A DNA stretch of 60,507 nt, the filler included, from a bacterium (GTDB lineage Bacteria; UBA9089; CG2-30-40-21; SBAY01), in NCBI GenBank assembly GCA_040757115.1. It is 3 parts of 3 records of this genome, joined end to end, with 100 filler letters (N's around TTAATTAATTAA, not from the genome) between each part and the next. Parts side by side here need not be neighbours in the genome. Positions count along the whole stretch, not along the records: positions 20,462 to 40,820 come from JBFLYA010000054.1; positions 40,921 to 60,507 come from JBFLYA010000056.1; 1 more part is not named here. One strand, written 5' to 3'. A model generated the notes under the pieces. The model saw only the letters and a program-made list of their open reading frames with translations. It had not been told where the DNA came from and did not search any database. The first letter of the stretch is position 1. Each line of letters opens with the position of its first letter. The translations under genes were made by a program, and so were the position numbers. Shown here in pieces: positions 21,946 to 47,326 of this stretch.

Positions 21946-22239
21946 GTAACCGTTCACCGCAGAGAACAGAGACGCAGAGAAAAACACACCCCTAACCCCT
22001 CTCAAGAGGGGAAAATCTATGGACGAGACGCTTAACATTCCTGATTTTCATCAGGGCAAGCTCTTAAGTACAACAACATTAAAATTGATTAACAAATCTG
22101 GCTTGCCTGCTGAACATTCGGTAAGCAGGTCCTATGTATTTCCATGTCTGCATCAATAATCTTTTATGTTATCTGATTTATTTCTATATTTTCTCTGTTC
22201 CTCTGCGTCTCTGCGGTAAATTACCACCTGAACGGTTAC
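21946..22239. mobile_element. IS66-end-like MITE (family C) carrying an internally deleted GxxExxY gene
   Basis: GTAACCGTTCA...TGAACGGTTAC; 8-bp duplication CTGATTTT; minus strand IEINQIT*KIIDADMEIHR ... DLLINFNVVVLK ... VKRLVH. Confidence 0.85.
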
Positions 22240-22349
22240 CTGATTTTTTCCCTTCCTATAGATCTGTCTCAGAAATGTTTCTGAGTTAAAATTTTAATTG
22301 ACAAAGAGTGATACTTATGGTATTATTATCTTCAGACGAGGTAATTATC

Positions 22350-22553
22350 ATGCAATCTGCTTTAAATCTATCTAAAGAAATTATCAATTTAAGCAAAAGA
22401 ACCAGGATAATAACTTTTGAGACAGTTAGGGATAATAATTTCGATCCGGTAGAGGATATGATTGGGAGTATTACCCTTAACCATCCTATTGATGTCGAGT
22501 CGCTATTAAAAGAAGGAAGTTTTTACGGTGTCAGCAAGGATTTTGAAATTTGA
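22350..22553 (+). CDS. putative antitoxin
   Basis: Short ORF with GAGG RBS overlapping a PIN-like ORF. Confidence 0.45.
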   Translation: MQSALNLSKEIINLSKRTRIITFETVRDNNFDPVEDMIGSITLNHPIDVESLLKEGSFYGVSKDFEI

Positions 22554-22794
22554 TGCTTCGCTCCCTAATGTTATCTTCTGGGATGCAAATTTTGTTATTA
22601 ACTCTTGCGTTACTGAGGCTAAATACTTCTCAGAATGCAGTAATCTTCTTCGGAAAATAGCAAAAAGAAAGATTACTTCAGTCATTTCTACTTTAATTCT
22701 GGAAGAATCCTGGTACGGTCTATTAAGAATCAAACTAATTAAAGAGTATCAGGACAAATGGCTCGACAAACTCAGAATGGTATTATTAGATTGA
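22528..22794 (+). pseudogene. truncated PIN-domain toxin
   Basis: IFWDANFVIN...ISTLILEE N-terminal PIN half only. Confidence 0.55.
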
Positions 22795-22827
22795 AAGAAA
22801 AAAATATTAATTTCAAGGAGAACAAAC

Positions 22828-23025
22828 ATGAAAGCAAAAGAGTCATTAACCGATTATTTAGATTATCTCCAAACTGACAATATTATAGAAGCCACTCAAC
22901 AAGCACGTAAAAAGAGCATGCATCTTTTACAAGACCAGGGTATTGCTGTTATGGCTCTTTTAATCTCTAACTTCATTACAGAAGCAATTGACCATCCTGA
23001 ATTATTATTAGAGAAGGCATCATGA
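22828..23025 (+). CDS. putative antitoxin
   Basis: 65 aa, AGGAG RBS, ATGA overlap with the PIN gene. Confidence 0.5.
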   Translation: MKAKESLTDYLDYLQTDNIIEATQQARKKSMHLLQDQGIAVMALLISNFITEAIDHPELLLEKAS

Positions 23026-23489
23026 AATGTGTTTATATTGATACCTCCGTAGTGAATATCAATCTGTTTGGTACAAAGAAAGAACCAGAGCGATATTCTA
23101 TAGTAATGAATTTCTTTAATCGACTTAATAGTCAAGAATTTGAAGGATTAATCTCCCTATATACCCTTCAGGAAATATATGCCTTTTGTGAAGATAACTT
23201 TCCATTAAACTATGTAAGAAAAGTAGTTAAATTGTCCTTTCAAGAATTACTAAAGAGTGAATTGCAAATAATTCCTTTATTAAAAAGATCCGAACGATTA
23301 GTTCACCAAAGAAAATTTCCGATCTCAGATTTATCTGACCAACCTCATGCAATTTTAGCCTATCTGAATGGGTGTGATGCTATTATTACTTATGATGACC
23401 ACTTTAGAGATATCGGATCTATCATTAAAGTTTTTACGCCAGAAGAATTCTTGGATATACTTGACAACAAACTTTTGCAGGAAATTTAA
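23022..23489 (+). CDS. PIN-domain (VapC-like) toxin
   Basis: VYIDTSV, ISLYTLQE, DQPHAILA, IITYDDHF. Confidence 0.8.
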   Translation: MKCVYIDTSVVNINLFGTKKEPERYSIVMNFFNRLNSQEFEGLISLYTLQEIYAFCEDNFPLNYVRKVVKLSFQELLKSELQIIPLLKRSERLVHQRKFPISDLSDQPHAILAYLNGCDAIITYDDHFRDIGSIIKVFTPEEFLDILDNKLLQEI

Positions 23490-23694
23490 TAAAGCTACAG
23501 ATTAACACAGAAAAACACAGAAAATAAAATAATTTATATCCTTTTTTGTCTCGCCAGGGCGCAAAGAGCACAAAGGTAATTTTTCCCTTATTTCCCTTTG
23601 CGTTCTTTGCGTGCTTGGTGTGAAACTTCCTTTCTCCTGAAAATAATGTCAGTGTCTATAGTCAGTAACAATAATCTATTGACTACTGACACTG

Positions 23695-26103
23695 TCACTG
23701 GTTTTCATCCTCTTTTGTACGCCACTGGCTCATGGCCGCTTTATCTAACCTCTCCTCATCCAAAGAAAGACCTTCTGACTTTTCTATTTCTAATTGACGC
23801 TCTATTTGCCTTTTTAACCTATCCTTAATGTTAGCGGTCAATGATGTCTCATCCCCTAATTGAATATCTATTTTAGTGTCTTCATCTTCAATAATTACCA
23901 TAAAAAGAGAACTTAATACAAGTCCCTCTGGATCCTTTTTATCAAGTTTAGTTTTAGAGAATTTCATTACCTTATCAGTCCATTCTTCAATTAATTCTTT
24001 AAAGAATGGCATATTAATCAACTTATCAAATAAAGAGGACTTATCATCAGATTCTCTTATCTCTCTAAGTAAAGTTATTAAAGTAGATTCTTCCGGTGTT
24101 TCCTCCTCATGCTTAAGTTCTTTTATCCTCTTCTCGACTTCTTCTTTCTTCTTCTCCAAATCTTCTAATTCTTTATTCAACCTATCTCTTTCTATTCCAA
24201 TAACTGTCCAATACTGCTCTTTCCATTCTTTACCATCAAGGTAAGAAATACTTTTCATATAAGATTTAATCTTAGCCAGTATCAGTTTAAAACAATCCTC
24301 ATAATCAGTTATTGTTCCCTTATTCATTTTACACAACAGCCAATATCCCTCAATATTCGCCGGGTCAAGTTCTATTGCCTTTTTAACCTTAGCCTCTGCT
24401 TGAGCAGGTAGGTTTTTATCTATATCCTCATTTGCCTTCTTTATTATTTGCTCTGCTTCCAAGATATTGCATTCATAATCATCTTTTTTAAGTTTAAATT
24501 GGTAATAACCCTTACCGAGTGTCCCTTTACGAGTAGATTCAATAATCCTTCTTTTAAAAGGTTCATTTAAATTAGTTACTTGTATTCTAAAAGCTCCTGC
24601 AGGGTCTTTGGGGCTCTCAATATTCCAATTATCAAAAATACCATATCCTGATGTCCAATGAAGAATCTGTTTTCTAATAAAATGTTGTAGTAATATAAAT
24701 CGAGGTTCATCTTTTTTGATTGATTTATCTCCTATACGAATTTCTTTAAGCCTAAAGTCTATTTTTATAGGCTCTATTGGAGTAGTCTTTAGTATTATCG
24801 CTTCAAGTTTACTCCTTAAATCTTCTATCACACTCAGTAATTTAGTCTTTTCAAAGGCATAACTTTGTAAACTTATAGCTAAATGACTAAATAGAATAAC
24901 CGAACCAGGTGCTACTTGCTCCAGCCAGAGTTGATGAATCCTGAATAAGTAAATAGAAATTGAAAGATAACTACATAAAAACACTAAAGAGAATAATCCT
25001 TGTTTTAATGCAGTTAATCTTGGTAGGAGTAATCCTATCATTAATCCTATCATTATCAAAAGTATACTATTTAATCCTTTGCTTAGACGAGTTAAGAATT
25101 GTTGATTAAGAATATTATCAATTGCGGTAGCAAATATCCCTACCCCCGGGTATTGAGCTGAAATAGGTGTAGTACATATATCTCCCTGACCAGTAGCAAT
25201 AGAGCCAATTAGCACAACCTTGTCTTTATAATCCTTAAGCGAAATTATAGGTTTTTCCCTTCCTTCAATCTGTTTAGCTGATTGTAAAACCTCTATAAAT
25301 GAATTAGTTTTTAAATCTGAGGTTGTAAAATTCAATAGCATCTGGCATTGTTTATCTATAGGGATTTTGATTCTATCCAGGATGATATATTTGCCTGGGA
25401 TTATTTCTATATCCTCCTGGGAAATATTTAAGTAATCGCAAGCCAGTAAAAGAGCTAAGTTTGGATATAATTTATCCTTATATTTAATAACTAATGGAAT
25501 TTTTCTTATTACTCCATCAGTATCGTGGAATACATTGGTATGACCAATACCTTTTGCACCTTTAAGCAGGCAAGGAAGTGAAGAAGTAAAACTTACAGCA
25601 GTTTTGATATGGGAGGCGGGAAGGTTTTCACTATACATCCTGCCTCCAATACATGAACTTTCAAGCAATTGCTCAACTTCCTCATCTACATCTTCTGAAG
25701 TAGAAAAATGAAAGATATAGGAATGATAGACATTTTTAGCTAATGTAGTACAATCTGATAATAAGTCATCATATTTTGGATTTGGGCTTTTTTCTGAAAA
25801 TAGAATATCAAAACCAATTTGCTTAGGTCTATACTCATCTTTAGTTAATGTATGTATAAGAAGTGCTTGTAAGTCTCTTGGAAATGGGAATTGGTTTATC
25901 TGGCTAAATGTATAATCATCAATAAGTATAAGTTTTATTCGTGAGTCTAATGGTTTATTTAGTGAAAATAGTCGAAATCTATAGTCTAATGATTTTAATT
26001 CAAATGGCTCAAATATTCCACACCAGGATAGCAAAGTTATAATCAGACTGACCAATAATCCTAATATTACTCCTTGTTGGATATTGGTTTTATATACCTG
26101 CAT
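23695..26103 (-). CDS. CHASE2 membrane sensor with atypical wHTH/TPR-like cytoplasmic output
   Basis: ELKSLDYRF, FPFPR, IGFDILFSE, DTDGVIRKIPL, YPGVGIFATAIDNIL; three TM helices; C-terminus lacks cyclase or kinase motifs. Confidence 0.8.
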   Translation of the reverse strand: MQVYKTNIQQGVILGLLVSLIITLLSWCGIFEPFELKSLDYRFRLFSLNKPLDSRIKLILIDDYTFSQINQFPFPRDLQALLIHTLTKDEYRPKQIGFDILFSEKSPNPKYDDLLSDCTTLAKNVYHSYIFHFSTSEDVDEEVEQLLESSCIGGRMYSENLPASHIKTAVSFTSSLPCLLKGAKGIGHTNVFHDTDGVIRKIPLVIKYKDKLYPNLALLLACDYLNISQEDIEIIPGKYIILDRIKIPIDKQCQMLLNFTTSDLKTNSFIEVLQSAKQIEGREKPIISLKDYKDKVVLIGSIATGQGDICTTPISAQYPGVGIFATAIDNILNQQFLTRLSKGLNSILLIMIGLMIGLLLPRLTALKQGLFSLVFLCSYLSISIYLFRIHQLWLEQVAPGSVILFSHLAISLQSYAFEKTKLLSVIEDLRSKLEAIILKTTPIEPIKIDFRLKEIRIGDKSIKKDEPRFILLQHFIRKQILHWTSGYGIFDNWNIESPKDPAGAFRIQVTNLNEPFKRRIIESTRKGTLGKGYYQFKLKKDDYECNILEAEQIIKKANEDIDKNLPAQAEAKVKKAIELDPANIEGYWLLCKMNKGTITDYEDCFKLILAKIKSYMKSISYLDGKEWKEQYWTVIGIERDRLNKELEDLEKKKEEVEKRIKELKHEEETPEESTLITLLREIRESDDKSSLFDKLINMPFFKELIEEWTDKVMKFSKTKLDKKDPEGLVLSSLFMVIIEDEDTKIDIQLGDETSLTANIKDRLKRQIERQLEIEKSEGLSLDEERLDKAAMSQWRTKEDENQ

Positions 26104-26175
26104 AAGTCTAAACCTCCAAAATATATGGGATGCGGGAGGCGGGAAGCGGGGAAGTAATGTTGCCTTCTGCTTCCA

Positions 26176-26818
26176 CTATTCTTTGCTGATTTTATCTAAA
26201 TATCTAACTAACCCATTAAGTAAGCGTCCTACACTTTCTATAGCAGTTATTAACTGGAAGTTTACATAGGATAATACCCATAAATAAGGCATGAGAATAA
26301 TCGTTCCGTTAGGAACATAATATCGGTAGGAATAGATAGACAAATCAATCAGTTCCGTAGGAACGATATATTGGTAGAAAATTTATGGAAAGCCATTTAC
26401 CGATATATTGTCCCTACGGGACATTATTTGTGTGATATTTATTTCTACCGATATGTTGTCCCTATGGGACATTATTTGTATTTCTAAGTAAAGTTTTGAA
26501 TAATAACTGCTATATCATTTGTTTTATTTCATGGTACACTTCATTATTAACCATTTTCAACTTATAGCTAAGTATCCATAAACTTTCTACTTCATTTAAT
26601 GACCCCATAGCTATCTCGACAAAATATTTGTATTCTTTTTTAGATGACCTTCCAGAACCCTCTGCAATATTACTTGAGATAGATATAGTAGCTCGTCTTA
26701 TCTGGGATGTGAGCCCGTACATTTCTTCTTTTGGAAAATCCTTAGTTACTTTATAAATTTTAACTGCTAAATCAATCGCTAATTGCCATACTTCAAGAGT
26801 TTCATATACTTTTGCCAT
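26176..26818 (-). pseudogene. four-helix-bundle (23S IVS/Avd-like) protein interrupted by a MITE
   Basis: LEVWQ...[16 protein letters not shown]...SNIAEG; removing the MITE restores QMIESVGRLLNGLVRYL; flanked by inverted GGGAAGC heptamer arms. Confidence 0.85.
26241..26512. mobile_element. 272-bp TA-duplicating MITE (IS630-like) carrying REP hairpins
   Basis: TA|TAGCAGTTATT...AATAACTGCTA|TA; near-identical to 55187-55458; four GTYCC..AGGRAC-type hairpins. Confidence 0.85.
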
Positions 26819-26890
26819 TTAATATTTTCCTCCTTCCTGCTTCCCATCTCCCACTTCCCGTTTCCTGCTTCCCGTCTCCCGCTTCCCAAG

Positions 26891-29050
26891 TTATTCTTTC
26901 CAATAAAGAATTTTCCCAACAAGATTTTCTCCTTCTTCCAATATATTTCTCATGCGAGTTATCTGGGCAGAGGTAGGTTCGGGTATATGTAGTTTTACTT
27001 TTTCTTTTTCAACCTTTACTTTCTTTTTTGCCTTTTCTAACAACTCTTTAATTTCGGGTATCGAAAGTTTTAATAGAGGAATTTGTTCTGCCTTTTCAAT
27101 AGCTTCTTTATCCAGGCCAAGGGTCTGATATGCCGCTTCATAGTTAGGAAATAATCTTAATGCCTCAATAAACATCTCTAATGCTATATTTTTTTCTTTT
27201 AATAGCGTGTATAATACCCCTAAATTAAGGTATATTCCACCGTCAGTTGTATCTTTTTTTATGGCTTCTTCATAGTACTTACAGGCAAGTTTTAACTCTC
27301 CATTTAAGCAATAAATATTAGCCAGATTATTATAAGCAGGAGAATATTCTGTATCAATCTCATTGATTATTTTACTAAATTCGTTTATTGCCTCCTCATA
27401 CCTTCCGTCCTTAGCATAAAATATCCCTTTTTGATTATGCTCCATAGAAAGTCTACTTTTTTTTCGGTATTCTTTAAATTCATTAATGTACTGTTTAACT
27501 TTAATATTTATTTCTTCTTGTGCCGGAATTTTAGGTAGCCAGTTTTCTTGAGGGAGGGTTGGTGGATTAAGAGGAGGATAATTTTTCCAACATTTATGTG
27601 TCTCCAATACTTTCAATTTACCCTCATTATTCCATTCCTTATACTCTCTTATACCATACTGCCAGGCATCTATAAATGATTTTTGTAGATGAATGGGGTC
27701 TATTGGTAGCCAGACATGGTCTTGCAGGATAATATATGAGTCCTTATCAAAACTAATTAAATCGGCATTTTTAGAATGGATACCTGTATCAAATAGTATA
27801 AATATATGTTCTGGGACTAATACAAATGCTGTGTGAATACCGACACTTTCTAAGCAAGTGGCATACAAGATACTTAAATCATCACAATCGCCTTTAGTAA
27901 AGAATAAACTTTGACGGGCATATTGAATTATCTCAAACGGCTCATGCGAGTAGCCAATAGGGTATACAGATAATCCTACAAATATCTCCATTGCCTGTAA
28001 TAATCTTTCATTTAATTCTCTTGGTTTAAAAGCACTAATTATATGTCGGGTAAAGAATTTTATAAGTGGGTCATCTGGGGTTACAAATTTACTGATTTTC
28101 TCCCAATCAATAGCCTCTTCCTTTTTAGGAAATTGTACAGATAGGCTAAGTCGATGTGTACTACCAATATCATCATAAGGTAAGAAACAATAGTCAAATA
28201 GCGTATGATTTCTTTTTAGCCCTAATCCAAAAGAGTATTTACCTAAATCTTTACTATGAGAATTTAGGCTTTGAGAGTATCCTCCTTGCAATGTTAAGTT
28301 ATCTAAAAGTCTATACTCTATACCAAGATGTAGTTTAGAATTAGACTCCTTCAGAAATTTATCTATATCAACTGCAAAAATTAAGTCATCTCTTAATTTA
28401 TAAGTAATACCTGTTTTGATGTTTAAAGGGAGTGGATAGCTTTGCTTGATAAATTTTACCTTCTTGCCAATGTTTTGTAAGTTTACACCAATATTTAAAT
28501 CTCCTCTTTTATACAATCCACCTAAGTCAGCAGCAAAGGTAGTAGCCTTTTCATCCTCAAGTTTTTCTTGAATAAATTTACCAGTAATACCGATAGAAAG
28601 GTCATGGGTTAGCCCTCTGGCATATCCTAAACTAATGTTTAAATCCGAAGTATCAAAGCTACCAATAGGTGCATCAGTAGGTCCTGTTCTTTTTTCTATT
28701 TTATCTGAATTAAGATAGTTTATACTTGCTCCAATGGATTGATTTGATGATAAAGGTTGGGCATAACTAAGGAATTCTTGTGTAGTATGAAGGGAGAGTT
28801 GGTTATGAGAGAATAAAAGTTTCCTTTGCTTGATTTGATTTAGCCCGGCAGGATTCCAATAAATAGCAGTGGGGTCATCAGCTAGACCAACAAATGCACT
28901 ACCCATGCCTAAAGCCCGTGCTCCGATACCTATCTTCAAGAAAGAATAGGGGGTTTTACCTGCCTTAGCTTCTACTTCTTGTACACTGAGTAAGCCAAGA
29001 AGTATTAGAAATGTTATCTTAAATTTTAACACACTTTCCTTCCTACACAT
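26891..29050 (-). CDS. PorV/PorQ-like beta-barrel - transglutaminase-like - TPR protein
   Basis: GARALGMGSAF...AIYWNPAGL; GDCDDLSILYATCLESVGI...HIFILFD; TPRs. Confidence 0.8.
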   Translation of the reverse strand: MCRKESVLKFKITFLILLGLLSVQEVEAKAGKTPYSFLKIGIGARALGMGSAFVGLADDPTAIYWNPAGLNQIKQRKLLFSHNQLSLHTTQEFLSYAQPLSSNQSIGASINYLNSDKIEKRTGPTDAPIGSFDTSDLNISLGYARGLTHDLSIGITGKFIQEKLEDEKATTFAADLGGLYKRGDLNIGVNLQNIGKKVKFIKQSYPLPLNIKTGITYKLRDDLIFAVDIDKFLKESNSKLHLGIEYRLLDNLTLQGGYSQSLNSHSKDLGKYSFGLGLKRNHTLFDYCFLPYDDIGSTHRLSLSVQFPKKEEAIDWEKISKFVTPDDPLIKFFTRHIISAFKPRELNERLLQAMEIFVGLSVYPIGYSHEPFEIIQYARQSLFFTKGDCDDLSILYATCLESVGIHTAFVLVPEHIFILFDTGIHSKNADLISFDKDSYIILQDHVWLPIDPIHLQKSFIDAWQYGIREYKEWNNEGKLKVLETHKCWKNYPPLNPPTLPQENWLPKIPAQEEINIKVKQYINEFKEYRKKSRLSMEHNQKGIFYAKDGRYEEAINEFSKIINEIDTEYSPAYNNLANIYCLNGELKLACKYYEEAIKKDTTDGGIYLNLGVLYTLLKEKNIALEMFIEALRLFPNYEAAYQTLGLDKEAIEKAEQIPLLKLSIPEIKELLEKAKKKVKVEKEKVKLHIPEPTSAQITRMRNILEEGENLVGKILYWKE

Positions 29051-29105
29051 AAATAGAGTTCAGCGGCGGTGGGCTTGCCCACCGTCCACTGTAATAACTT
29101 GATAA
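29048..29105 (-). mobile_element. degenerate attC-like site
   Basis: Minus strand ATCAAGTTATTACAGTGGACGGTGGGCAAGCCCACCGCCGCTGAACTC resembles attC L-box arms; the core boxes are eroded. Confidence 0.35.
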
Positions 29106-29108
29106 TTC

Positions 29109-29400
29109 GTAACTATTTAGCCAAGTGAAGTGAAAGGTAAGGAGAGGTGGAGAAAGGAGAGAATTGGAGAAAAGTACAAAATCCCACATCCCAAATTATA
29201 AATCACAAACAAATTCCAAATTCAAAATCTATTTGTTTCCCCTGTAGATAATATCAACGGGGTTTAGAGTTTTGGTCATTGGATTTTAGAGTTTGTTTGA
29301 TTTTTGGTGCTTGTGATTTGGTACTTCTTTTTATTCTCTCCATTTCCCCATCTTCTCCCTTTCTCCTTACTTACACAACTTCAGATGTCTAAAGTGTTAC
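29109..29400. mobile_element. IS66-end-like MITE with GGAGA and heptamer arms
   Basis: GTAACTATTTAG...CTAAAGTGTTAC; 8-bp duplication GATAATTC. Confidence 0.8.
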
Positions 29401-29406
29401 GATAAT

Positions 29407-30288: not shown

Positions 30289-30343
30289 AATTAATCCTCA
30301 ATAATTCAGTGGTTGTCCGTTACTGGAGTAACCAATCAAGATT

Positions 30344-37517: not shown

Positions 37518-37813
37518 GTAACCGTTCACCGCACAGACACAGAGACGCAGAGAAAAACACACCCCTAACCCCTCTCAAGAGGGGAAAATCTATGGACGAG
37601 ACGCTTAACATCCCTGATTTTCATCAGGGCAATCTCTTGAGTACAACAACATTAAAATTGATTAACAAATCTGGCTTGCCTCCTGAACATTCGGTAAGCA
37701 GGTCATAAGTATTTCCATATCTGCATCAATGAATTTTTTATGTGTTCTAATTTATTTCTATGTCTTCTCTGTTCCTCTGCGTCTCTGTGGTAAATTACCA
37801 CCTGAACGGTTAC
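37518..37813. mobile_element. IS66-end-like MITE (family C) with GxxExxY remnant
   Basis: Close copy of 21946-22239; flanks are not duplicated. Confidence 0.85.
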
Positions 37814-38105: not shown

Positions 38106-40517
38106 CTATAACATTCCAATCGGGTCAACATCTACATTTATCTTCAAATACCCCGGTATAGTTATTTGGTCTAATGCTGATTTCACTAATTCCCGAAGGG
38201 GTTTAGGATTACCTTTAAGAAGTATTTGCCAGCGATATTCTTCCTTTATCTTAGTTAAAGGGCAAGGGGCTGGACCTAAAATAATCACCGTTTTATCCTG
38301 GTTATTACTTCGGAGAATACTACCGAGCGTCTGGGCTAATTTAATCGTTTCCTCACCATTTTTACCTTTGATGATAATATTAAGTAAATGGGTAAAAGGT
38401 GGGTAATTAAGTTCTTTTCTAAATGTAATCTCTTGAGAATAAAAGGTGGCATAGTCCTGTATCTTAGCCGACTGAATAGTAGAATGTTCAGGATTATAGG
38501 TTTGAATAATAACTAATCCGGGATTTTGCCCTCTTCCGGCGCGACCAGCAACTTGCGTCAGTAATCCAAATGTCCGTTCTGCGGCACGAAAATCAGGCAG
38601 ATTTAACCCCACATCTGCTGAAACTACCCCAACTAAGGTTACATTGGGAAAATCTAATCCCTTAGCAATCATTTGTGTGCCAACTAAAATATCTATTCCG
38701 CCTGATTTAAAAGAAGAAAGAATATTATCATGAGCCATTTTAGGTGTAGTTGTATCTAAATCCATTCTTGAAATTCTTGAATGTGGGAATAATTTTTGTA
38801 ATTCATCCTCAACCTTCTGCGTTCCTGTGCCAGAATACCGAATTTGTGTCCCCTGACACTTAGGGCAGAATGCGGGTGCTATTTTTTGAAAATTACAATA
38901 ATGGCATTTGAGCATTTTGTCTGCAAAATGATAGGTTAAAGTAATCTCACAATGCGGACATCTCATCGTCATCCCACAATCACGACATTGAATAAAGGTG
39001 GCAAATCCTCGCCGATTTAAGAAAATAATGACTTGCTGTTGTTTGTTTAGTCTGTCCAATATTGCCTCTTTTAATTTTAGGCTAAAAATACTCCGATTAC
39101 CCATTTTGAGCTCTTCTTTCATATCGATTATTTCTACCTCTGCTAAAGGTCTATGGTCAATTCGAGATGGGAGATGGAGATAGTAAAATTTACCAATGGA
39201 TGTGTTGTAATATGCCTCTACGGATGGGGTGGCAGAACCTAAAATTACCACAGCATCAGTAAACTTTGCTCGCATAATCGCTACATCTCGAGCATGGTAG
39301 CGTGGGACAGAATCATATTGTTTATAAGTAGTTTCGTGTTCTTCATCAATAACAATCAGACCTAAATTTTTCATAGGGGCAAAGATAGCCGAACGAGCAC
39401 CAATAACGATTTCTGCTCCACCTTCCTGTATCCTTCGCCATTGGTCATAGCGTTCGCCTGGAGATAATTTACTGTGTAAAATGGCTACTTTTCCGCCAAA
39501 GCGGGCTTTAAATCGCTCAACTGTCTGCGGAGTAAGTGATATTTCTGGCACTAAAACAATCACCCCTTTTCCTATCTTCAAAACCTCATCTATGGCTTGA
39601 AGATAAACCTCTGTTTTACCACTCCCGGTTATGCCATGCAATAAAAATACCTTAAACTCACCTTTTTTAATATATTCTTTGATAGCATTTAAACTCTCAG
39701 TTTGCTCTTTGGTCAATCTTAGAGGGTAAGAAGGTTTAAAATATCTATCTTTGTAAGGTTCCCTATCTATTTGCTTTGAACAAACCATAAGAAAATTTTT
39801 ATTTATAAGATTATTAATCGGGGTGAGGCTTGTTTGTGCTTTTTGGGCTAATTTATCTGGCTCAAGAGCCCCATTTTGATGCAGGATTTCAATAATCGAA
39901 CGCTGTCTTTGAGTCAGTGTTTGCGCCAATATTCTTTCCTTAGGCAGGGCTAATTTGATTACCTTTATCTCTTTGGGTTTTAAAGCAGGCTTTTTAACAC
40001 GCTCGATCTCTATCAACTCTTTCTGGATAAGACTGTTTATCGCTGAATAAATAGGTCTTTTCTTTAAAATGTTTAATAACTTAGCTAAACTTATCTCTTT
40101 TTCTTTTTTTATTAACTCCAGAATCTTAAATTGTAGAGGTGCCTTTTTATCCAGACCCGGCATATCTTTCAGGTATTTAATTCTGGTTTTTGTGTTGATA
40201 TTAATACCCGGTGGTAGAGTCGATTCAATTACCTCGCCCCAGGAGCAAAGGTAGTATGTGGCTATCCATTGGGTTAGTTTTAACATCTCATCAGATAGAA
40301 CAGGCGTGCTATCCAGAACATCTAAAATATCTTTTATTTCATAGTCAGCACAGATAGGACTGGTAAGGACATTAACGATATATCCAGTCAGGTGGCGCCG
40401 ATGGCCAAAAGGAACTAAGACCCGTTTCCCAATGGCTATATCTTTTTCTAATTCCTTTGGAACCGCATAGGTAAAAGTTTTATCAATAGATAAACCCGAA
40501 ACTATTTCGATGAACAT
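38106..40517 (-). CDS. priA: primosomal protein N'
   Basis: [67 protein letters not shown]. Confidence 0.97.
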
Positions 40518-40574
40518 ATTGCTCCTGAAAAATGGTTTTCTCCCCGCAGAGTCGCAGAGCTCTGTGGTGAACGA

Positions 40575-40698
40575 TTACAATGTGTTAATCTCATCCGAGC
40601 TCCTTATAATTTTATCCTTTGTTATAATACTTGCTGAATAAAACTTTGCACAAGCAACAATAATTCTATCATGGATTTCAGGGATAGTCTTTAATTTC
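40575..40698 (-). pseudogene. PIN toxin C-terminal fragment cut by a MITE at the contig end
   Basis: IPEIHDRIIVACAK...IITKD. Confidence 0.6.
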
Positions 40699-40820
40699 GT
40701 AACCGTTCAGGCTATATATCAAAAGTGTAAGAAAGGGGATAAGGAGATAAGAGTGATATGGAGATAAGATAATAGAAATAGATTGAAATTTATAGAAATA
40801 GGTAGAAATTGATTGTGGAA
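40699..40820. mobile_element. family A MITE truncated at contig end
   Basis: Matches the start of 10137 and 48244. Confidence 0.8.
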
Positions 40821-40920
40821 NNNNNNNNNNNNNNNNNNNNNNNNNNNNNNNNNNNNNNNNNNNNTTAATTAATTAANNNNNNNNNNNNNNNNNNNNNNNN
40901 NNNNNNNNNNNNNNNNNNNN
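40821..40920. other. artificial contig linker
   Basis: N-run with TTAATTAATTAA. Confidence 0.95.
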
Positions 40921-41112
40921 TAAAGAAGTAATCATAATTGGTCTCCTTTTTATGTTAACTTTAGTGGTATCAACCACTTAGATAAAGTATAGCATAGAAG
41001 GAGGCCAATGTCAATCATTTTTGTTAAAAAATCTACAGATTTTTTAATAGATTAACTACTGATATATCAAGGGGTTAACGCTATTCTGGTTAGCTCACTT
41101 GCCGATTGCAGG
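40921..41112 (-). mobile_element. probable IS left end interrupting the permease gene
   Basis: Terminus CCTGCAATCGGCAAGT; ATG with AGGAG RBS paired in a hairpin, running into the gap; permease frame stops abruptly here. Confidence 0.5.
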
Positions 41113-41742
41113 TATAAATCTACCATAAGTGTAGGTGAAGGAGGTCTAGCTTATTTACCTTTTACCACCTTTCAGAAAATATTCAAGACATTGTCACCCC
41201 AGATGATTTATGCTCAAGCAATAAACTCATCTTCTATAGAAGAGGCTTGTGCTCAAACTAAAAGGGTATTAATGTTTAGACATAAACAAAAAGGGGTAGA
41301 ATTTGTTGCCCATTCGTTGGTAGAAACACTTCAGGCTACTCAACGACTAATCAGATTAGCTACCTTAGTAATTGGCGGAATTGCGGCTATATCTTTGATA
41401 GTTGGAGGAATTGGAATAATGAACATAATGTTAGTTTCGGTTACAGAGAGGACTAAAGAGATAGGCATAAGATTAGCCATTGGAGCCAGAAAGAGGGATA
41501 TTTTATGTCAATTTTTAATTGAGGCAGTAGTATTAAGTGTAAGTGGTGGGGTAATTGGAATTATGGTAGGAATAATCATTGATTATTTCGTCGCACCATT
41601 ATTTAACGTGCCTATAATATTCCCACTCTGGGCAATAATAGTAGGTTTTATATTTGCGGTCATTATTGGAATACTATCAGGATTTTACCCGGCTAAAAAG
41701 GCAGCAAACCTTACTCCGATTGAGGCATTGAGATATGAGTAA
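41113..41742 (+). CDS. MacB/FtsX-type ABC permease, C-terminal part (5' end missing)
   Basis: VGGIGIMNIMLVSVTERTKEIGIRLAIGA, QFLIEA, YPAKKAA...EALRYE. Confidence 0.85.
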   Translation, partial: YKSTISVGEGGLAYLPFTTFQKIFKTLSPQMIYAQAINSSSIEEACAQTKRVLMFRHKQKGVEFVAHSLVETLQATQRLIRLATLVIGGIAAISLIVGGIGIMNIMLVSVTERTKEIGIRLAIGARKRDILCQFLIEAVVLSVSGGVIGIMVGIIIDYFVAPLFNVPIIFPLWAIIVGFIFAVIIGILSGFYPAKKAANLTPIEALRYE

Positions 41743-41785
41743 TCTGGAGACTGAATAACCAAAGAACTAAAGGATTGAAGAACAA

Positions 41786-42472
41786 ATGGATAAAGTAATC
41801 ATCAGTTTAGAAAACATATCAAAGATTTATAAATTAGGTAACAATGTCTATGTAGAGGCATTAAAGGATGTATCTGTAGAGATTAAAAAGGGTGAATTTG
41901 TGGCTATTATGGGTCCATCAGGTTCAGGTAAATCTACTCTCCTTAACATTATTGGTTGTCTGGATAGACCAACTCAAGGGGTTTACTTGTTAGAAGGAAC
42001 AAATGTGTCTAAACTTTCAGACAATCAACTTGCAGAGATAAGATTAAAGAAAATAGGTTTTGTCTTTCAAACATTCAATTTACTCAATAGATTTACTGCC
42101 TTACGAAATGTAGAATTACCTCTTATTTATACCGGTATTGACCGTAGAGATAGACAAAACCAGGCATTAAAATTATTAGAAAAAGTTGACCTGAAGATAA
42201 GGACAAATCATAAACCGACAGAATTATCAGGTGGAGAGGCACAACGAGTCGCAATTGCCAGGGCATTGGTTAATAACCCAGGGATTATATTAGCGGATGA
42301 ACCAACCGGGAATTTAGATACTAAAACCTCTACGGAAATTATGCAAATTTTTCAAAGACTTAACCAGGAAGGAATTACTATCCTTTTAATTACCCATAAT
42401 GAACTAATTGCTAATTTTGCTCATAGGAAAATATCTCTTTTAGATGGTGAGATAAGTAAAGGACAAGCGTAG
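41786..42472 (+). CDS. ABC transporter ATP-binding protein (LolD/MacB-like)
   Basis: [34 protein letters not shown]. Confidence 0.95.
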
Positions 42473-42603
42473 TAAGTAGAGAAGGTAAGTAATAGCGAGT
42501 CTTTTTGTGTTTTCTTAAACTGATAGGAATTTGATAATATGTAAAGATGGGCATCCTTTAATAGATTGACAGGTATGTTATACTGATATAACAAAATCTA
42601 AAA

Positions 42604-42900
42604 GGTAATGTCAAAAACTTTTACCTAAATTCCTTTTAACTCTCTATATTTTTAGACAGTTATGTAAATTGGGCTTGCCTCCCCCCATTTTTTGTGATAT
42701 AATGGGAAAAAATATATGTGTCTGGTTTCTCTCAAAACCACTAAAAGAGCAAGACAGCAGAATATTGTCTCTGGCATCATCGTTACAAAGAGAAAAACCT
42801 AATAAAAGTTTCCCAAAACATATACCTTAATCTGTCAAAAAGCAACTTTTATCCATTTCCGATTTTTTCATAATTCTTTCATGTTATTTTTGACACTACC
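42604..42900. mobile_element. MITE or IS remnant with GGTARTGTCAAAAA ends
   Basis: GGTAATGTCAAAAA...TTTTTGACACTACC; no clear target duplication. Confidence 0.5.
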
Positions 42901-42929
42901 TTATGTCAACAGCCTGTCAAGGTTTGACT

Positions 42930-44249
42930 CTAAGCCACTAAGCCATATTCTTTTATTTTCTTCTGTAGGGTTTTACGGTCTACTCCAATGGCTTTGGCGG
43001 CTTTTGTCCGATTACCGCCAACTTCCTGTAGGACTTTAATCAACAATTCCCGCTCAAGTTGTGCCTTTGCTTGATATACTGACTCTTTAAATGATAGATT
43101 CTTCTCTTTTGCCTTAATTATATTATTTGGAATATCCTCAATATCTATTTTATCACCTTTAGCCAACACTACCATTCTTTCAACTACATTCTCAAGTTCT
43201 CGAATATTTCCAAACCAATCATATGAAGTCAATAATTCTTGTGCCTCTTTTGTAATCCCAAGTATATTTTTATTAGTCCGAAGATTAAATATCTTTAAAA
43301 AATGCTCTAATAAAATAGGAATGTCATCCTTTCTTTCTCGCAAAGGAGGTAAAAATATTGGGACAACATTTAGTCGATAGAACAATTCTTCTCTATATTT
43401 TCCTTCTTTAACCGCCTTTTCTAAATCACGATTAGTAGCGGCAATAACCTTGACATCTACTTTGATAGTTTTAGTGCCTCCAACTCGTTCAAACTCCCTT
43501 TCTTGCAACACACGCAGTAACTTAATCTGCATAGGTATATCCATCTCTCCCACCTCATCTAAAAATATAGTTCCTGTATTAGCCAGTTCAAATCTACCCA
43601 GTCGTTGGTTTATTGCCCCTGTAAATGCACCCTTTTCATGTCCAAATAATTCACTCTCTAATAGATTTTCTGGTAATGCCACACAATTAACTGGTATAAA
43701 AGGTTTATCTTGCCGCAGACTTAATCGATGTATTGCCTTTGCCACTAACTCTTTACCTGTCCCGGTCTCGCCTCTAATCAGAACAGTAGTATCGGTTTTA
43801 GCTACCTGGTTAATTAATTCATGTATCTCTTTTATCTTTTGACTTTTGCCAATAATCTCGTCAAACTTTGCCTCTTTTTTTATTTCTTTATGTAGTTGAA
43901 GTGCCTTTGAAACAACTATGGTTATCTCATCTAATTCAAAAGGTTTGGTGATATAATCATAAGCCCCTTGTTTCATTGCCTCAATTGCTGTCTTAAGAGT
44001 TCCAAAGGCAGTAATCATAATCACAATTACATCCGGGGAGATTTTCTTAGCCCTTTTTAAAAGCTCTAATCCGTCCATCTGAGGCATCTTTAAATCAGTA
44101 ATTATTAATGAGAACTCCTGTATTGGTTTATTTAGTGCCTCTTGCCCATTCTTGGCAGTAGTTACTAAGTAACCTTCTTTAGTAAGAATAGTAACTAATG
44201 CATTGCGAATTTTTTCCTCATCCTCTACTACTAAAATCTTTTTCTTCAT
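42930..44249 (-). CDS. sigma-54-dependent response regulator (NtrC/AtoC family)
   Basis: REC domain; GETGTGKE, ESELFGHEKGAFTGA, GNIRELEN; HTH. Confidence 0.95.
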   Translation of the reverse strand: MKKKILVVEDEEKIRNALVTILTKEGYLVTTAKNGQEALNKPIQEFSLIITDLKMPQMDGLELLKRAKKISPDVIVIMITAFGTLKTAIEAMKQGAYDYITKPFELDEITIVVSKALQLHKEIKKEAKFDEIIGKSQKIKEIHELINQVAKTDTTVLIRGETGTGKELVAKAIHRLSLRQDKPFIPVNCVALPENLLESELFGHEKGAFTGAINQRLGRFELANTGTIFLDEVGEMDIPMQIKLLRVLQEREFERVGGTKTIKVDVKVIAATNRDLEKAVKEGKYREELFYRLNVVPIFLPPLRERKDDIPILLEHFLKIFNLRTNKNILGITKEAQELLTSYDWFGNIRELENVVERMVVLAKGDKIDIEDIPNNIIKAKEKNLSFKESVYQAKAQLERELLIKVLQEVGGNRTKAAKAIGVDRKTLQKKIKEYGLVA

Positions 44250-44315
44250 CCTGGATTATCCTTAAAAAATTAGTAATTATTCAGGTGTAAGCAAGGAAAA
44301 ATGGAAAAGTTGGAA

Positions 44316-44744
44316 GTAACTATTCACCACGAAGAGCACGAAGGACACGAAGATTGGACAGAACAAATCTCTTTATGCCTTCTTTCAATCTTTCCACATT
44401 GAAATTTATCAATAGATCAACCTTGATATTTGCCAATTTCATATATGGTAATGGGTCAGTGAAATGGGGGATTCTCCTGAAAGTAGGAAGTAGGAGAGTA
44501 GGAAAGTAGGAAAGGGGGAGACATTACCCCCAGAAGAGGAATACCGGGCACATCCTTTAGCCCTTTCCTACTTACCTACTACCTACTTGCCTACTATTTT
44601 CATTGCTCTGTCCTCCGCAGGTTAATGTTCATTCCCCCAAATAACTGACTTATTACCATATATGTCAATATTTGAGCTTCATGAATTCGATAATTCATCA
44701 AATTTCACTTCGTGCTCTCCGTGCCCTTCGTGGTGAATAGTTAC
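44316..44744. mobile_element. IS66-end-like MITE carrying a deleted GxxExxY gene, with nested MITE 44448-44656
   Basis: GTAACTATTCACCACGAAG...CTTCGTGGTGAATAGTTAC; VKFDELSN joined to HEAQILTYMKLANIKVDLLINFNVERLKEGIKRFVL; inner GTAATGGGTCAG...CTGACTTATTAC with CATATATG duplication. Confidence 0.85.
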
Positions 44745-44745
44745 A

Positions 44746-44877
44746 CTACCTTTAACAGTAATCGGTTTTCTTCATATCCTTTTACCACAAGATGGCTATC
44801 GTGAAATACTTTGATGGTCTCTTATTCACGAAATCAAACCCTAAATCTCCACTTTCATCAAGATATAAGTATAGCAT
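44746..44877 (-). pseudogene. DUF3800 N-terminal fragment
   Basis: MLYLYLDESGDLGFDF..., frameshifted and truncated by the MITE. Confidence 0.65.
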
Positions 44878-45114
44878 CTATACCTTCCTTACCTTTCTCT
44901 TTATAGGACGCAGATGACCGCAGATTGTCAGGATAAAGAGGATGATGTCAAGCAATTCAATTTCGGCTCTCTTATGAGCCTGTGCCTCTTTGACCTGAAC
45001 GAATCAATAAATTCAAGAACGCCTCCTTAAATCCCCCTTTATCTTCTCCTTTCCCTTCGCTTATCTCCCTTCCTTAAGAGTTGAATAATATGGCGATGGG
45101 ACGGTGGGATATAC

Positions 45115-45178
45115 TCTGTTCTTTGAGATAGTTTGCTGTTGTCTGTTGCACCAGTGTGTCTTCATTTAAAGAAGTCAT
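45115..45178 (-). pseudogene. type I restriction HsdR N-terminal stub
   Basis: MTSLNEDTLVQQTTANYLKEQ, ATGA-coupled to rhuM. Confidence 0.5.
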
Positions 45179-46221
45179 AGTTTTTCCCTTTTAGTTTCAA
45201 GTAATTTTTTAACCTCTCGGTCAAAGTCGGATTCAAAGAGCCGATCTTGAACAATCCTATATTTTTCGTATTCGCTTTCCGCTAAAGCAAGGGCTACTTC
45301 ATGGCTGATTTTACCGCTATCTTGTAAAATTTCCTTTTCATTGAATTGCAAGAAAGCATCCAGCTTTTCCACCCAATCTTTCATATACATAACAATGCCT
45401 TTTTGCGCCTGCATTTCAGCATAGTCCAGATACATCGTTACAATACGGTTAAGGCTGTCTAACTCCTTTTCGTTTAAATAATTTTTGGCTATGCCTACAT
45501 CCATTTTGCGGATTGCTCCTTTGGGGCTGTTTTTCCAGGAGGTTAACCCCATATTAGGCTTTTTGCTGTCAACTCTCTGGTAAATAATTTCCGCAGCAGT
45601 CTGGCCGCTTATCGCAAAGTGTAATTTATTCTGCACCGTGGCAAAAAACTGTTTGGTTATATCGGTATTGGGATCATAATCAGCGCTGCATTGAGCGTAA
45701 ATATCCGTGATCTTTTGATAGAACCTCCGCTCGCTGCTGCGGATATTTCTGATGCGTGCCAGTTGTTCTTCAAAATAATCCTGTCCAAAAATATTGTTTG
45801 GATTTTTCAACCGCTCATCATCCATAGCAAAGCCTTTAATGATGTATTCCTTGAGCACCTGCGTCGCCCATTTCCTAAAATGCGTTGCTCTTAGCGAATT
45901 GACCCGATAACCTATGGATATAATTGCGTCAAGGTTATAAAACTCTACTTTTCTTGATACTTGTCTTTGACCCTCTTTTTGAACTTGTGCAATTTTTACA
46001 CAAGTTGAATCTTTATTCAGTTCGCCTTCAGAAAAAATGTTTAGAAGATGTTTGGTAACCACACTTCTGTCCACATCAAAAAGCTCGGCAATCTTTGCCT
46101 GTGTGAGCCACACGGTTTCATCGCGTAAGAATATCTCCACCTTTACCTTACCGTTTGGCGCGGTGTAGAGCAAAAATTCCGTGAAGCTGTTTTGTGGAAC
46201 AATCTGCTTGTTTCTTCCCAT
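45175..46221 (-). CDS. RhuM-family protein
   Basis: WLTQAKIAELF, YNLDAIISIGYRVNS, IRSSERRFYQKITD, QNKLHFA, AKNYL. Confidence 0.9.
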   Translation of the reverse strand: MGRNKQIVPQNSFTEFLLYTAPNGKVKVEIFLRDETVWLTQAKIAELFDVDRSVVTKHLLNIFSEGELNKDSTCVKIAQVQKEGQRQVSRKVEFYNLDAIISIGYRVNSLRATHFRKWATQVLKEYIIKGFAMDDERLKNPNNIFGQDYFEEQLARIRNIRSSERRFYQKITDIYAQCSADYDPNTDITKQFFATVQNKLHFAISGQTAAEIIYQRVDSKKPNMGLTSWKNSPKGAIRKMDVGIAKNYLNEKELDSLNRIVTMYLDYAEMQAQKGIVMYMKDWVEKLDAFLQFNEKEILQDSGKISHEVALALAESEYEKYRIVQDRLFESDFDREVKKLLETKREKL

Positions 46222-46224
46222 TCT

Positions 46225-46370
46225 TTACACCTCGATTTCTCCACTCATCAGCCGCGGCAGGAGCAAATCGCGGGCTTGAGCGAGTTTTTGGTTTTGGTCA
46301 AACAAAGTCAGAATTTCATCGATCATGGGTTCAACAATTGCGCCGAATTTATCGATTGGGATAATTATCA
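46225..46370 (-). pseudogene. type I HsdS C-terminal fragment
   Basis: ...VEPMIDEILTLFDQNQKLAQARDLLLPRLMSGEIEV*. Confidence 0.75.
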
Positions 46371-46486
46371 CTATATTTGGCTCACGGTCATCTTGAACCT
46401 TTAAAATATGTTTGTAACCGTTCAGGGCTATACATTAGAAGTGTAAACAAGGAGAAATGGGGAAAAGGGAGAACTGGAGAAATGGC

Positions 46487-47052
46487 TCAAACTTTTTCTT
46501 GCTCCACCCTTCGGACATCAATCCTGGAATCTGCGAAATTTACCAGTAACCCTATTTCTTTATCCACTGCTCTAATGTATAATCTAACCTGATTATAATA
46601 CTTCCCACTTATCTCCTCAACAGTTTTAATCTCTACCACAATCTCATCTTCAACAAAAAGATCAAGTCTATGAATCCCAACCTCAACACCTTGATAGAAT
46701 ATCTTGACTTCTTTTTCTGATTCAAAGATGATGTTGTGTCTTGCAAACTCAACCTTCAAAGCATTGTGATAGATGCTCTCCAGAAAACCAGGTCCTAATG
46801 TCGTGTTGAACAAATAACGCACGGAATTCGATTCTGGTAACTGGTGATTGGTAACTGGTAATTAAATACCGTTGGGCTGAGCTCAGGACGAAACTATTTA
46901 ACCAATTACCAATTACCAGTTACCAATTATCCGTTTGCAGGTTACGAAACCTGATGATGCCCCGTGCAAAACTTACTCAACACGACACTAACTTTTTATG
47001 GACATTAATACAGGCATTAATAATCCTATCAGTTAACTCTTCTTTTCTCCAT
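46487..47052 (-). pseudogene. GxxExxY (PD-(D/E)XK-like) protein
   Basis: EELTDRIINACINVHKKL|GPGFLESIYHNAL...DLFVEDEIVVEIK...GLLVNF; +1 frameshift after the ATG and a 189-bp insertion. Confidence 0.85.
46799..46987. mobile_element. MITE with TGTCGTGTTGA ends and heptamer arms
   Basis: TIR TGTCGTGTTGA/TCAACACGACA; CTAA (or TA) duplicated; TAACTGG/CCAATTA arms. Confidence 0.8.
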
Positions 47053-47111
47053 TTCTCCATCTTCTCCCTTTCTCCTTATTTTTATCCTACCTGAACCCTT
47101 ACAAAAAATTG

Positions 47112-47326
47112 GTAACTATTCACCATTCACAATTTCTTCCCTAAATTTCCTTAATAATGGTGAATTGTGAATTGTCAATTGTGAATGGTGAATTATCACT
47201 CTTCACGGTGTTAAGCAAACCTGGTCCAAGAGTTCGATGCACCGCTATAGCGCATCCAATGACTCTATTCGATAATTCATCAAATTTCACTTCGTGCTCT
47301 CCGTGTCCTTCGTGGTGAATAATTAC
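47112..47326. mobile_element. IS66-end-like MITE with GxxExxY N-terminus
   Basis: GTAACTATTCACC...GGTGAATAATTAC; VKFDELSNRVIGCAIAVHRTLGPGLL. Confidence 0.75.

Follow-up and report, generated by a model that had tools for sequence, protein, structure and literature searches.

Mobile insertion cassettes (MICs) derived from the insertion sequence (IS) IS231 offer one point of comparison for the DNA described here. MITEs (miniature inverted-repeat transposable elements) of a related kind occur in cyanobacteria and elsewhere, the cyanobacterial Nezha being one of them (PMC3184786; PMC3542288). We analysed a window of 60,507 nucleotides, made up of three contigs (C412, C413 and C415, with C413 at window positions 20462-40820) of the bacterial assembly GCA_040757115.1, in which non-autonomous elements with IS66-type ends hold pieces of GxxExxY genes between inverted arms of short repeats. 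We consider it probable, at roughly 70%, that these elements represent two stacked layers of selfish DNA, in which armed cassettes lie within IS66 ends and decay to MITEs. They share with MITEs and MICs, as far as the published description of Nezha extends (PMC3184786), IS-type terminal inverted repeats, target duplications, the lack of a transposase, a high copy number, a presumed mobilization in trans, larger forms that contain passenger genes, and sites that are occupied in one relative and empty in another. They differ in having an IS66-family donor, in their passengers, which appear to be repeat-bounded selfish cassettes of two gene families, and in that the full series of decay from cassette to MITE is present within one genome. 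No paper on IS66-derived elements with this cargo was found in the literature searched.

The 23S rRNA intervening sequence (IVS) of Coxiella has been described as selfish and as having an unknown origin; it has an S23p open reading frame (ORF), its terminal stem measures 28 bp, its tandem heptamers are variable, and RNase III excises it (PMC4990558). The features of the Coxiella and Leptospira IVS that this account covers and that recur here are a small four-helix-bundle (S23p) ORF in the loop of a long terminal-repeat stem, tandem heptamers of variable number beside the ORF, and decay of the ORF. The long stem with tandem heptamer-like terminal repeats is present in our elements when compared with that description, and an intervening-sequence protein or four-helix-bundle ORF is found in one group of our cassettes and not in the GxxExxY cassettes. 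The location in helix 45 of 23S rRNA is not shared, as the window has no rRNA gene; a search of the whole window against Rfam at gathering thresholds gave one tRNA only. Unlike the IVS, our elements are intergenic or nested in one another rather than in rRNA, their units vary from copy to copy, and many of them lie between IS ends. Many also carry a PD-(D/E)XK gene of the GxxExxY type, and those share the architecture of the IVS only and not its ORF.

Inverted pairs of heptamer arrays have been reported with the unit GGGAATC in Xanthomonas and GGGGATT in Nostoc (PMC4692102). Like our arms, the arrays covered there consist of tandem repeats of ~7 nt in convergent, intergenic pairs of variable length, and GGGGATT-type arms occur on four-helix-bundle cassettes; the passages of that paper on the arrays, in contrast, treat them as G-quadruplex-forming simple repeats without an enclosed gene or mobility. 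The PDDEXK_3 family (PF13366) is listed with unknown function and with multiple transfers between bacteria and archaea (PMC3424549). It is the same protein family as GxxExxY (PF13366, TIGR04256), and the entry on it in that survey does not mention flanking arms, cassettes or IS ends. Full texts, mostly non-subscription and without supplements, were searched, and none of the papers found connects GxxExxY or PF13366 with flanking arms, MITEs or IS66.

IS66-ended elements and a matching transposase

An earlier note, made from the sequence of the window, listed five GTAA...TTAC elements with GxxExxY sequence between inverted arms. All five can be read directly in the sequence. Each starts with GTAAC[CT][GA]TTCA and closes with the complement, with one or two substitutions where 46414-47102 (GTAAGGGTTCA) and 47112-47326 (GTAATTATTCA) end on the right. 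With up to two mismatches, GTAACCGTTCA occurs 33 times in the window, compared to 8.4 times (sd 3.0, maximum 17) over 100 shuffles. Inverted arms sit directly inside the ends in all five elements, each with 3-5 copies of a short core (GCAGAGA, CACGAAG, GGAGAAA). These arms are not strict heptamers, as the cores measure 5-7 nt and are spaced at 7-12 nt. A strict period-7 model was rejected, since none of 418 elements had both arms above its threshold; the arms consist of cores and 1-3-nt spacers, and a spaced-core test was used in its place. We also scanned every GTAA...TTAC pair in the window lying 60-1500 bp apart (n=2060) for flanking duplications. Exact 8-bp duplications flank five of these pairs, the same five that the note had named, against 0, 0, 0, 0 and 1 in five shifted controls. 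The elements concerned are as follows.

21946-22239: IS66-ended non-autonomous element, 294 bp; GCAGAGA-type arms; GxxExxY N-plus-C fusion, minus strand; duplication CTGATTTT
29109-29400: GTAA...TTAC element, 292 bp; variant ends GTAACTATTTAG / GTAACACTTTAG; GGAGAAA-like arms; duplication GATAATTC
37518-37813: IS66-ended element, 296 bp, sister of 21946-22239; same N-plus-C fusion; flanks AAAAATCG / CGAATTTC, no duplication
44316-44744: IS66-ended element; CACGAAG arms; first few codons and C-terminus of GxxExxY, minus strand; no duplication
44448-44656: GTAA...TTAC element nested in 44316-44744; GTAGGAA arms; duplication CATATATG
46414-47102: IS66-ended element, 689 bp; GGAGAAA arms; full-length but interrupted GxxExxY gene
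46487-47075, minus strand: GxxExxY gene (PD-(D/E)XK, TIGR04256 / PF13366), split by a nested insertion; N-terminal piece at 46977-47075
46799-46988: nested inverted-repeat element, 190 bp; ends TGTCGTGTTGA; GGTAACT-type arms; ~4-bp duplication CTAA; splits the GxxExxY gene
47112-47326: IS66-ended element, 215 bp; CACGAAG arm and GxxExxY N-terminus (minus strand) on one side, ATTCACA-arm hairpin on the other
48244-48480: IS66-ended MITE of 237 bp with GGAGATA arms and without any trace of coding sequence; duplication AATTTATT; its family is the largest (62 copies)
49654-49920: IS66-ended MITE, 267 bp; CACGGAT arms; duplication AGGCAGGA

Both nested insertions can be delimited. Contigs of runs X1 and X2 contain the parent form of 44316-44744 without the nested insert, joining 44439 to 44657 with 8 letters shared. 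For 46799-46988, the two coding-sequence (CDS) matches overlap by 3 nt, and a run-contig joint connects 46794 to 46988 with 4 letters shared; uninterrupted sisters of the host element 46414-47102, at C68:24650-25145 and C430:14892-15402, have duplications. The family of 47112-47326 comprises 20 copies, with exact duplications in 14 of the 19 that are testable. The segment 48618-48706, which the note had called an arm-only relic, is indeed a CACAAAG-arm hairpin without GTAA or other IS ends.

Such ends are abundant throughout the genome. GTAACCGTTCA occurs 601 times where 1.8 are expected from base composition, GTAACTATTCA 415 times (5.3 expected) and GTAAGCGTTCA 241 times (1.8 expected), while GTAACTGTTCA was counted 105 times. 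Pairing of 769 left and 802 right ends by a stack method gives 446 elements, with a length mode of 200-250 bp and a second peak at 450-500 bp. Exact 8-bp duplications flank 142 of the 442 testable pairs; a further 20 have a duplication with one mismatch and 280 have none. Pairs of up to 800 bp (n=421) account for 2.64% of the genome. Clustering of the 401 elements between 120 and 800 bp long gives 122 groups, of which the two biggest hold 62 copies (GGAGATA arms) and 60 copies (GCAGAGA arms and a GxxExxY N-terminal remnant). For 98 of 331 elements there is a sibling of near-full length with an identity of at least 99%. Three or more spaced core copies are found in one or both arms of 303 of the 418 IS66-ended elements of at least 150 bp, compared to 74 of 2000 random segments, and the core is common to both arms in 93 of the 96 elements in which both arms qualify. 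Enrichment of the 11-mer extends to 22 of the 26 relatives searched, other families of the phylum included; there are 674 copies in the congener G001 and 504 in G012, with 0-6 for reversed-pattern controls.

The assumption that GTAA ends are IS66 ends is supported by an IS66-family element in the same genome, C198:3061-4623, which carries GTAACCGTTCAGGTA at both ends. This element is 1563 bp long, its ends are identical over 15 letters, and it gives the best of the six PF03050 matches in the genome (E 1.9e-39). The window elements have 11-13 of the 15 terminal letters in common with it. Its transposase is a single long frame with two in-frame stops, and no duplication flanks it. A contig of a relative's metagenome-assembled genome (MAG), L019, contains a gene 97% identical to this transposase that is open over 472 codons and scores 293 bits with NF033517 (cut-off 180) and matches PF03050 at E 3.2e-41; a matching right end follows the transposase, and the left end is displaced by an IS630-like gene. 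An intact IS66 transposase with a matching right end is found in the relative, and the copy in this assembly has two stops: tblastn of the intact L019 transposase against this assembly returned that one copy and a 35%-identical fragment. We observe that an IS630-like gene (helix-turn-helix and DDE) adjoins the IS66 copy in this genome (L001:470-760, minus strand) as well as in the relative (L019:275-1380).

The C198 element does not have the three genes tnpA, tnpB and tnpC of a canonical IS66. As it holds one transposase frame only, we file it with the single-ORF IS66 group, which we take to be the ISBst12-like group of ISfinder with 8-bp duplications. That group and the elements described here have in common terminal repeats that begin with GTAA, duplications of 8 bp and a transposase of the DDE_Tnp_IS66 type (PF03050, NF033517 above cut-offs). 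The differences are the lack of tnpA/tnpB, the pseudogene state of the genome copy, and the sharing of its ends by hundreds of non-autonomous elements.

GxxExxY cargo, its decay and other passengers

Searches of the interiors with the TIGR04256 hidden Markov model (HMM) identify GxxExxY matches on the minus strand, and the stages of deletion that the earlier note had assigned to the five window elements are recovered, some from the protein profile and some from DNA. The strongest match is to 46487-46861 (E 2.4e-30, 105 bits, cut-off 35), within the full-length but broken gene of 46414-47102, which is split by the 190-bp nested inverted-repeat element. In 47112-47326 only the N-terminus remains (47141-47332 matches profile positions 1-25, E 2.5e-4), and 44316-44744 retains the first codons and the C-terminus, with 44320-44523 corresponding to the last 29 profile positions (88-116, E 1.1e-4). 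Short remnants in the window score 21-22 bits, under the cut-off of 35, and of 8 queries five short ORFs gave no TIGR04256 match, three of them from 21946-22239 (23-26 aa). At the DNA level, 21946-22239 matches a full-length copy in the genome over CDS 1-47 (85%) and 297-334 (82%); because both ends of the gene are matched, the element is an N-plus-C fusion. For its sister 37518-37813, BLAST returned the C-terminal part only, but together with 21946-22239 it matches one G001 copy at 95-96%, in agreement with the same fusion.

Comparison at the DNA level assigns 103 of the 446 elements to GxxExxY remnant classes: 8 with the full CDS, 9 N-plus-C fusions, 60 N-terminal only, 25 C-terminal only and 1 other. 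HMM searches of stop-to-stop ORFs miss short remnants and detect 61 of 446, and the union of both approaches is 131 of 446. The element C51:2539-3242 has the same nested insertion as 46414-47102 together with the exact duplication AATTTTTT, which implies that copies with a broken gene still moved. A full copy (L020) scores 162.6 bits with TIGR04256 and 158 bits with PF13366.

GxxExxY was taken in the earlier note for a PD-(D/E)XK-like family, and at the superfamily level this view is strengthened. Over 78 sequences G24, E27, Y30, D67 and K79 are invariant and E77 is present in at least 90%, so that the D...ExK residues are kept, and the AlphaFold model (pLDDT 95.9, pTM 0.89) shows the fold. 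Exhaustive structure alignment of the model gives restriction-endonuclease-like folds with Z scores of 8.1-6.3, in the middling range. No solved structure was found by sequence, and Foldseek gave nothing at E 0.001 or better for the model. The matches are generic to PD-(D/E)XK and do not single out a specific nuclease subclass such as a Holliday-junction resolvase (Z 6.3). The data support GxxExxY as a predicted PD-(D/E)XK nuclease, to the superfamily and no finer. Folded as RNA, a full element has a 37-bp terminal stem (z = -6.6).

GxxExxY is not the sole cargo of these elements; four-helix-bundle genes are carried likewise. These unrelated genes belong to TIGR02436 / PF05635, the 23S-IVS protein family, and are related to the Avd protein of diversity-generating retroelements. 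There are 27 matches in the genome (PF05635 1.4e-26, TIGR02436 1e-23), and traces are present in 19 of the 446 IS66-ended elements. The genes lie in IS66-ended elements of 461-546 bp, of which C450:4964-5430, C407:15465-15948 and C11:1404-1949 have exact duplications. A third passenger was observed in C444:4176-6117, an element of 1942 bp with IS66-type ends, an exact 8-bp duplication and an Rpn/YhgA-type PD-(D/E)XK gene (TIGR01784, PF04754).

The range of passengers bears on the idea that GxxExxY is itself the transposase, its nuclease making the GTAA...TTAC ends and the 8-bp duplications, with the likeness to IS66 a coincidence or a convergence. The conservation of the D...ExK residues across 78 GxxExxY sequences would fit such an activity, and so would the cassette terminus (A)TTCACC, which overlaps the last four letters of the repeat. 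We nevertheless regard this as very improbable, since the same duplications occur on ORF-less, four-helix-bundle and broken-gene elements and since an element encoding an IS66 transposase matches 15 of 15 terminal letters. Moreover, cassettes in other phyla have neither GTAA ends nor duplications, and G012 has 504 ends and no strong GxxExxY match. Mobilization by an IS66 transposase acting in trans is the more probable source of the ends and duplications.

Armed cassettes beyond IS66 ends

The flanks of all near-full-length genes were aligned to each other in inverted orientation. Of the 16 near-full-length GxxExxY genes, 15 have inverted arms, and the arms seen in 14 of 17 four-helix-bundle genes consist of short tandem repeats. 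The arm unit differs in nearly every cassette (CGGGACT, GTGTCGG, ATAGTTT, GCAGAGA, GAATTAG, AAAGTCA, GGTGTCT, ATTCACA, AAATTCC, GTAGTCA and others). Seven of the 16 GxxExxY genes and 2 of the 17 four-helix-bundle genes lie between IS66 ends, and 9 of the 16 near-full-length GxxExxY genes have arms and no IS66 end pair.

A second shell, with TTCGACCTGTGAAATAGG ends, encloses four clade-B cassettes of full length (GGAGATA arms). Their inner boundary there, GTGTAAGAA, is the one that IS66-ended MITEs with GGAGATA arms also have; in the window, the arms and the GTGTAAGAA inner ends of 48244-48480 match the clade-B cassette. The second shell (TTCGACCTGTG ends) is represented by 126 motif copies and by 22 pairs, which are 157-2249 bp long and in some cases have duplications of 8 bp. 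Its ends are also present on a 1660-bp element, C137:1160-2819, with a frameshifted ISKra4/ISLre2-like gene that scores 79.5 bits, under the cut-off of 205. Three contexts of the same cassette are found here, namely within IS66 ends, within those of a second IS type, and without IS ends. In the window, the TTCGACCTGTG motif was observed at 55116 and 56738.

Comparison with the congener G001 provides filled and empty sites in both directions. The genes flanking 21946-22239 are ~97% identical in G001, where the orthologous site has a single CTGATTTT and no element. At window position ~57145, where the window is empty, G001 has 570 extra bases consisting of a bare cassette: its arms are of the ACACAGAT type, its GxxExxY gene is intact, and GTAA ends are lacking. 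No close copy of this cassette was found in the genome of the window; within G001 there are other copies at 96%, 92% and 80% identity and one N-plus-C deletion derivative. The family-level relative G003 has four full-length GxxExxY genes, with inverted flank alignments scoring 20-45 and clear repeat arms in two of the four (CACGAAT, GGGAAAA), and none of them lies between canonical IS66 ends. Two further observations concern the same comparison and the neighbourhood of the first site. Window 54220-55460 spans ~1.2 kb, against 93 bp in G001 (C568:3540-3633), and the extra DNA includes a 278-bp repeat (55184-55460) with many copies in G001. A tRNA gene, the sole Rfam match in the window, lies at 21430-21503, ~440 bp upstream of 21946-22239.

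A scan of one genome per species yielded 584 relatives of the GxxExxY alignment, of which the best 80 loci were analysed; these come from many bacterial phyla and include two archaeal MAGs. Inverted arms scoring 36 or more flank 44 of 79 testable loci, where shuffles average ~17 and the direct-orientation control gives 13 loci. The start of the arms is sharply marked by (T)T(C/A)ACC, after which come three CRCNNAR units. At least three CRCNNAR units occur on both sides in inverted orientation in 58 of 80 loci, compared to 10 and 18 for the opposite strands, and the major unit variant is common to both arms in 41 of these 58, compared to 11.0 by permutation (maximum 19 in 2000). Stops interrupt 8 of 77 of the cross-phylum GxxExxY genes. 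For the four-helix-bundle genes the query was a single protein, whose reach is limited to close relatives; of 51 full-length loci, 26 have heptamer arms in inverted orientation, with a large variety of units, compared to 4 in the direct-orientation control.

The agreement of the two arms speaks to a reading in which they are ordinary host repeats, regulatory or structural (terminators, simple-sequence arrays), that happen to lie near small genes, so that there would be no cassettes at all. Inverted heptamer array pairs of unknown role do exist in Xanthomonas, according to the part of PMC4692102 that covers them. Chance proximity would hardly account for a unit shared by the arms in 41 of 58 loci where 11.0 are expected, for arms that move together with the gene between contexts and genomes, or for the excess of such repeats in elements over random segments (303/418 vs 74/2000), and we give this reading hardly any weight. 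The preferred one, in which arms and gene form a cassette, agrees with the proposal of the earlier note that GxxExxY and its arms are a mobile unit of their own. That proposal gains from the arms without an IS66 pair in 9 of 16 genes, from the second shell, from the bare cassette in G001 and from the cross-phylum arms.

Repeated packaging between IS66 ends, proposed at the same time, is likewise favoured. Junctions are of three types or more (TTCA|CC-arms; TTCAGG…GTGTAA-arms; four-helix-bundle junctions), and there are two unrelated cargo families and two types of IS end, which argues for several captures, probably three or more. The final four letters of the IS66 repeat are also part of the cassette terminus, TTCACC, and this overlap suggests a route by which IS66 ends and cassettes could have fused. 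A simpler history would have an IS66-derived cassette take up GxxExxY once, with copies that lack ends being eroded ones and the cassette having no mobility of its own. Ends do erode easily, with degenerate GTAA-like ends visible in C334 and L240; related protein clades have related arms, as co-descent predicts, and IS66 ends directly abut the arms in several lineages. A single capture would not explain why the arm architecture is common to two unrelated gene families, why armed cassettes without GTAA ends occur across dozens of phyla, archaea included, or why the same clade-B cassette with the same inner boundary sits in two IS shells. In addition, 23S IVS with heptamer-repeat stems and a four-helix-bundle ORF are described outside any IS66 context in the relevant part of PMC4990558. 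We therefore judge a single capture without a second tier to be unlikely, and retain several captures of cassettes that already had arms.

A broader proposal is that the armed cassette represents a pan-prokaryotic, undescribed class of autonomous selfish element. Its protein, GxxExxY or, in a sister class, the Avd-like four-helix-bundle protein, would recognise its own arm units and work on the stem or cruciform that they form, so that the cassette is excised, copied or homed; the ORF-bearing 23S IVS, the Xanthomonas and cyanobacterial heptamer arrays and much of the cyanobacterial load of short tandemly repeated repetitive (STRR) type would be members or fossils of the class, and IS66-type and other transposons only occasional vehicles. 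Recognition of its own arm units would explain the co-change of unit and protein and the presence of the same unit in both arms. We offer this extension tentatively and consider it doubtful as a whole. Several four-helix-bundle cassettes of other phyla (among L158-L237) were observed to have GGGGATT / GGGATTG-type arms, the G-rich heptamer that is enriched in Nostoc and Xanthomonas. On the basis of such arms, the Nostoc and Xanthomonas heptamer arrays may be cassette arms or relics and would in that case be linked to the cassettes.

Two proposed layers and their meaning

The first layer would be an old and widespread armed cassette, in which a gene of ~125 codons, for a GxxExxY protein (a predicted PD-(D/E)XK nuclease) or a four-helix-bundle (23S-IVS/Avd-like) protein, lies between two inverted arms. 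Each arm has 3-5 copies of a 5-7-nt core, and the arms pair into a stem of ~30-40 bp, an architecture that is also that of ORF-bearing 23S rRNA IVS. The second layer would be a single-ORF IS66 insertion sequence, between whose repeats (GTAAC[CT][GA]TTCA) several cassette lineages presumably came to lie, some cassettes having come instead between the ends of a second, ISKra4/ISLre2-like element. Enclosure would turn them into mobile cassettes without a transposase, moved in trans by the IS66 transposase, which would generate the 8-bp target duplications. Interior deletions would then lead from the full gene to N-plus-C fusions, to N- or C-only forms and to arms only, and further small elements would insert into copies, the product being a swarm of MITEs of 150-300 bp.

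The earlier note had described this as a two-tier mobile system spread in trans, and that description is supported. The IS66 ends are established, as is an arms-plus-gene unit independent of IS66; the cassette may also move by itself. Spread in trans agrees with duplications on ORF-less and broken copies, with the near-identical siblings and with the empty site in G001, and the IS66 transposase is the probable agent, judging from the shared ends.

Several results weigh against the two-layer reading. The 8-bp duplication is missing from 280 of the 442 testable pairs, and pairing of ends is imperfect, as the genome is a fragmented assembly of 462 contigs in which repeats break contigs. As many as 298 of the 446 IS66-ended elements have no cargo trace at all, and G012, with its 504 ends, yields nothing for TIGR04256 at E 1e-20 or better; a large part of the swarm may accordingly never have held a cassette. 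By tblastn, an intact matching transposase is absent from this assembly, and G001 DNA matches the IS only at its ends, so that present-day activity here is unproven. The cross-phylum GxxExxY cassettes have no GTAA ends and no evident target duplication. In G001, ~90 further bases are missing beside the empty site of 21946-22239, and the 570-bp cassette is flanked by an imperfect 11-nt direct repeat, for which gain and loss cannot be polarised. Finally, kinship among the copies prevents an exact count of capture events.

The remaining features of the window belong mainly to the MITE layer.

10137-10663: cluster of IS66-ended pieces; two ends of GGAGATA type (10137, 10540) and one with GGTGTCT arms (10663)
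14893-15180: IS66-ended MITE, 288 bp; CACGGAT arms; no duplication
20235-20361: MITE left end (IS66-type, CACAGAG arms), interrupted by a scaffold gap
26510-26818 (C413:6043-6330), minus strand: four-helix-bundle gene (TIGR02436) with one in-frame TAG; no clear arms
40699-40820: MITE left end (GGAGATA arms), interrupted by a scaffold gap
60382-60507: MITE end (GGAGATA arms), interrupted by the window end

Tandem repeats of ~120 bp were also observed at window ~53350-53950, within a 1137-codon ORF (50814-54227), from evenly spaced motif matches and self-BLAST. The scaffold gaps (20362-20461 and 40821-40920) and the window end all fall within copies of IS66-ended MITEs, and these repeats are what breaks the assembly here. 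With at least 2.6% of the genome, and with their position at the scaffold gaps and at the window end, the elements limit the assembly of this lineage.

The two-layer reading would tie together four topics that have been treated separately: the GxxExxY nuclease family with its large paralogous expansions, the four-helix-bundle proteins of 23S IVS, inverted heptamer-like arrays, and IS-derived MITE swarms. Because one genome keeps every stage, from the intact cassette to the arm-only relic, the origin of its MITE swarm becomes readable, and the role of the small genes and of their repeat arms becomes testable.

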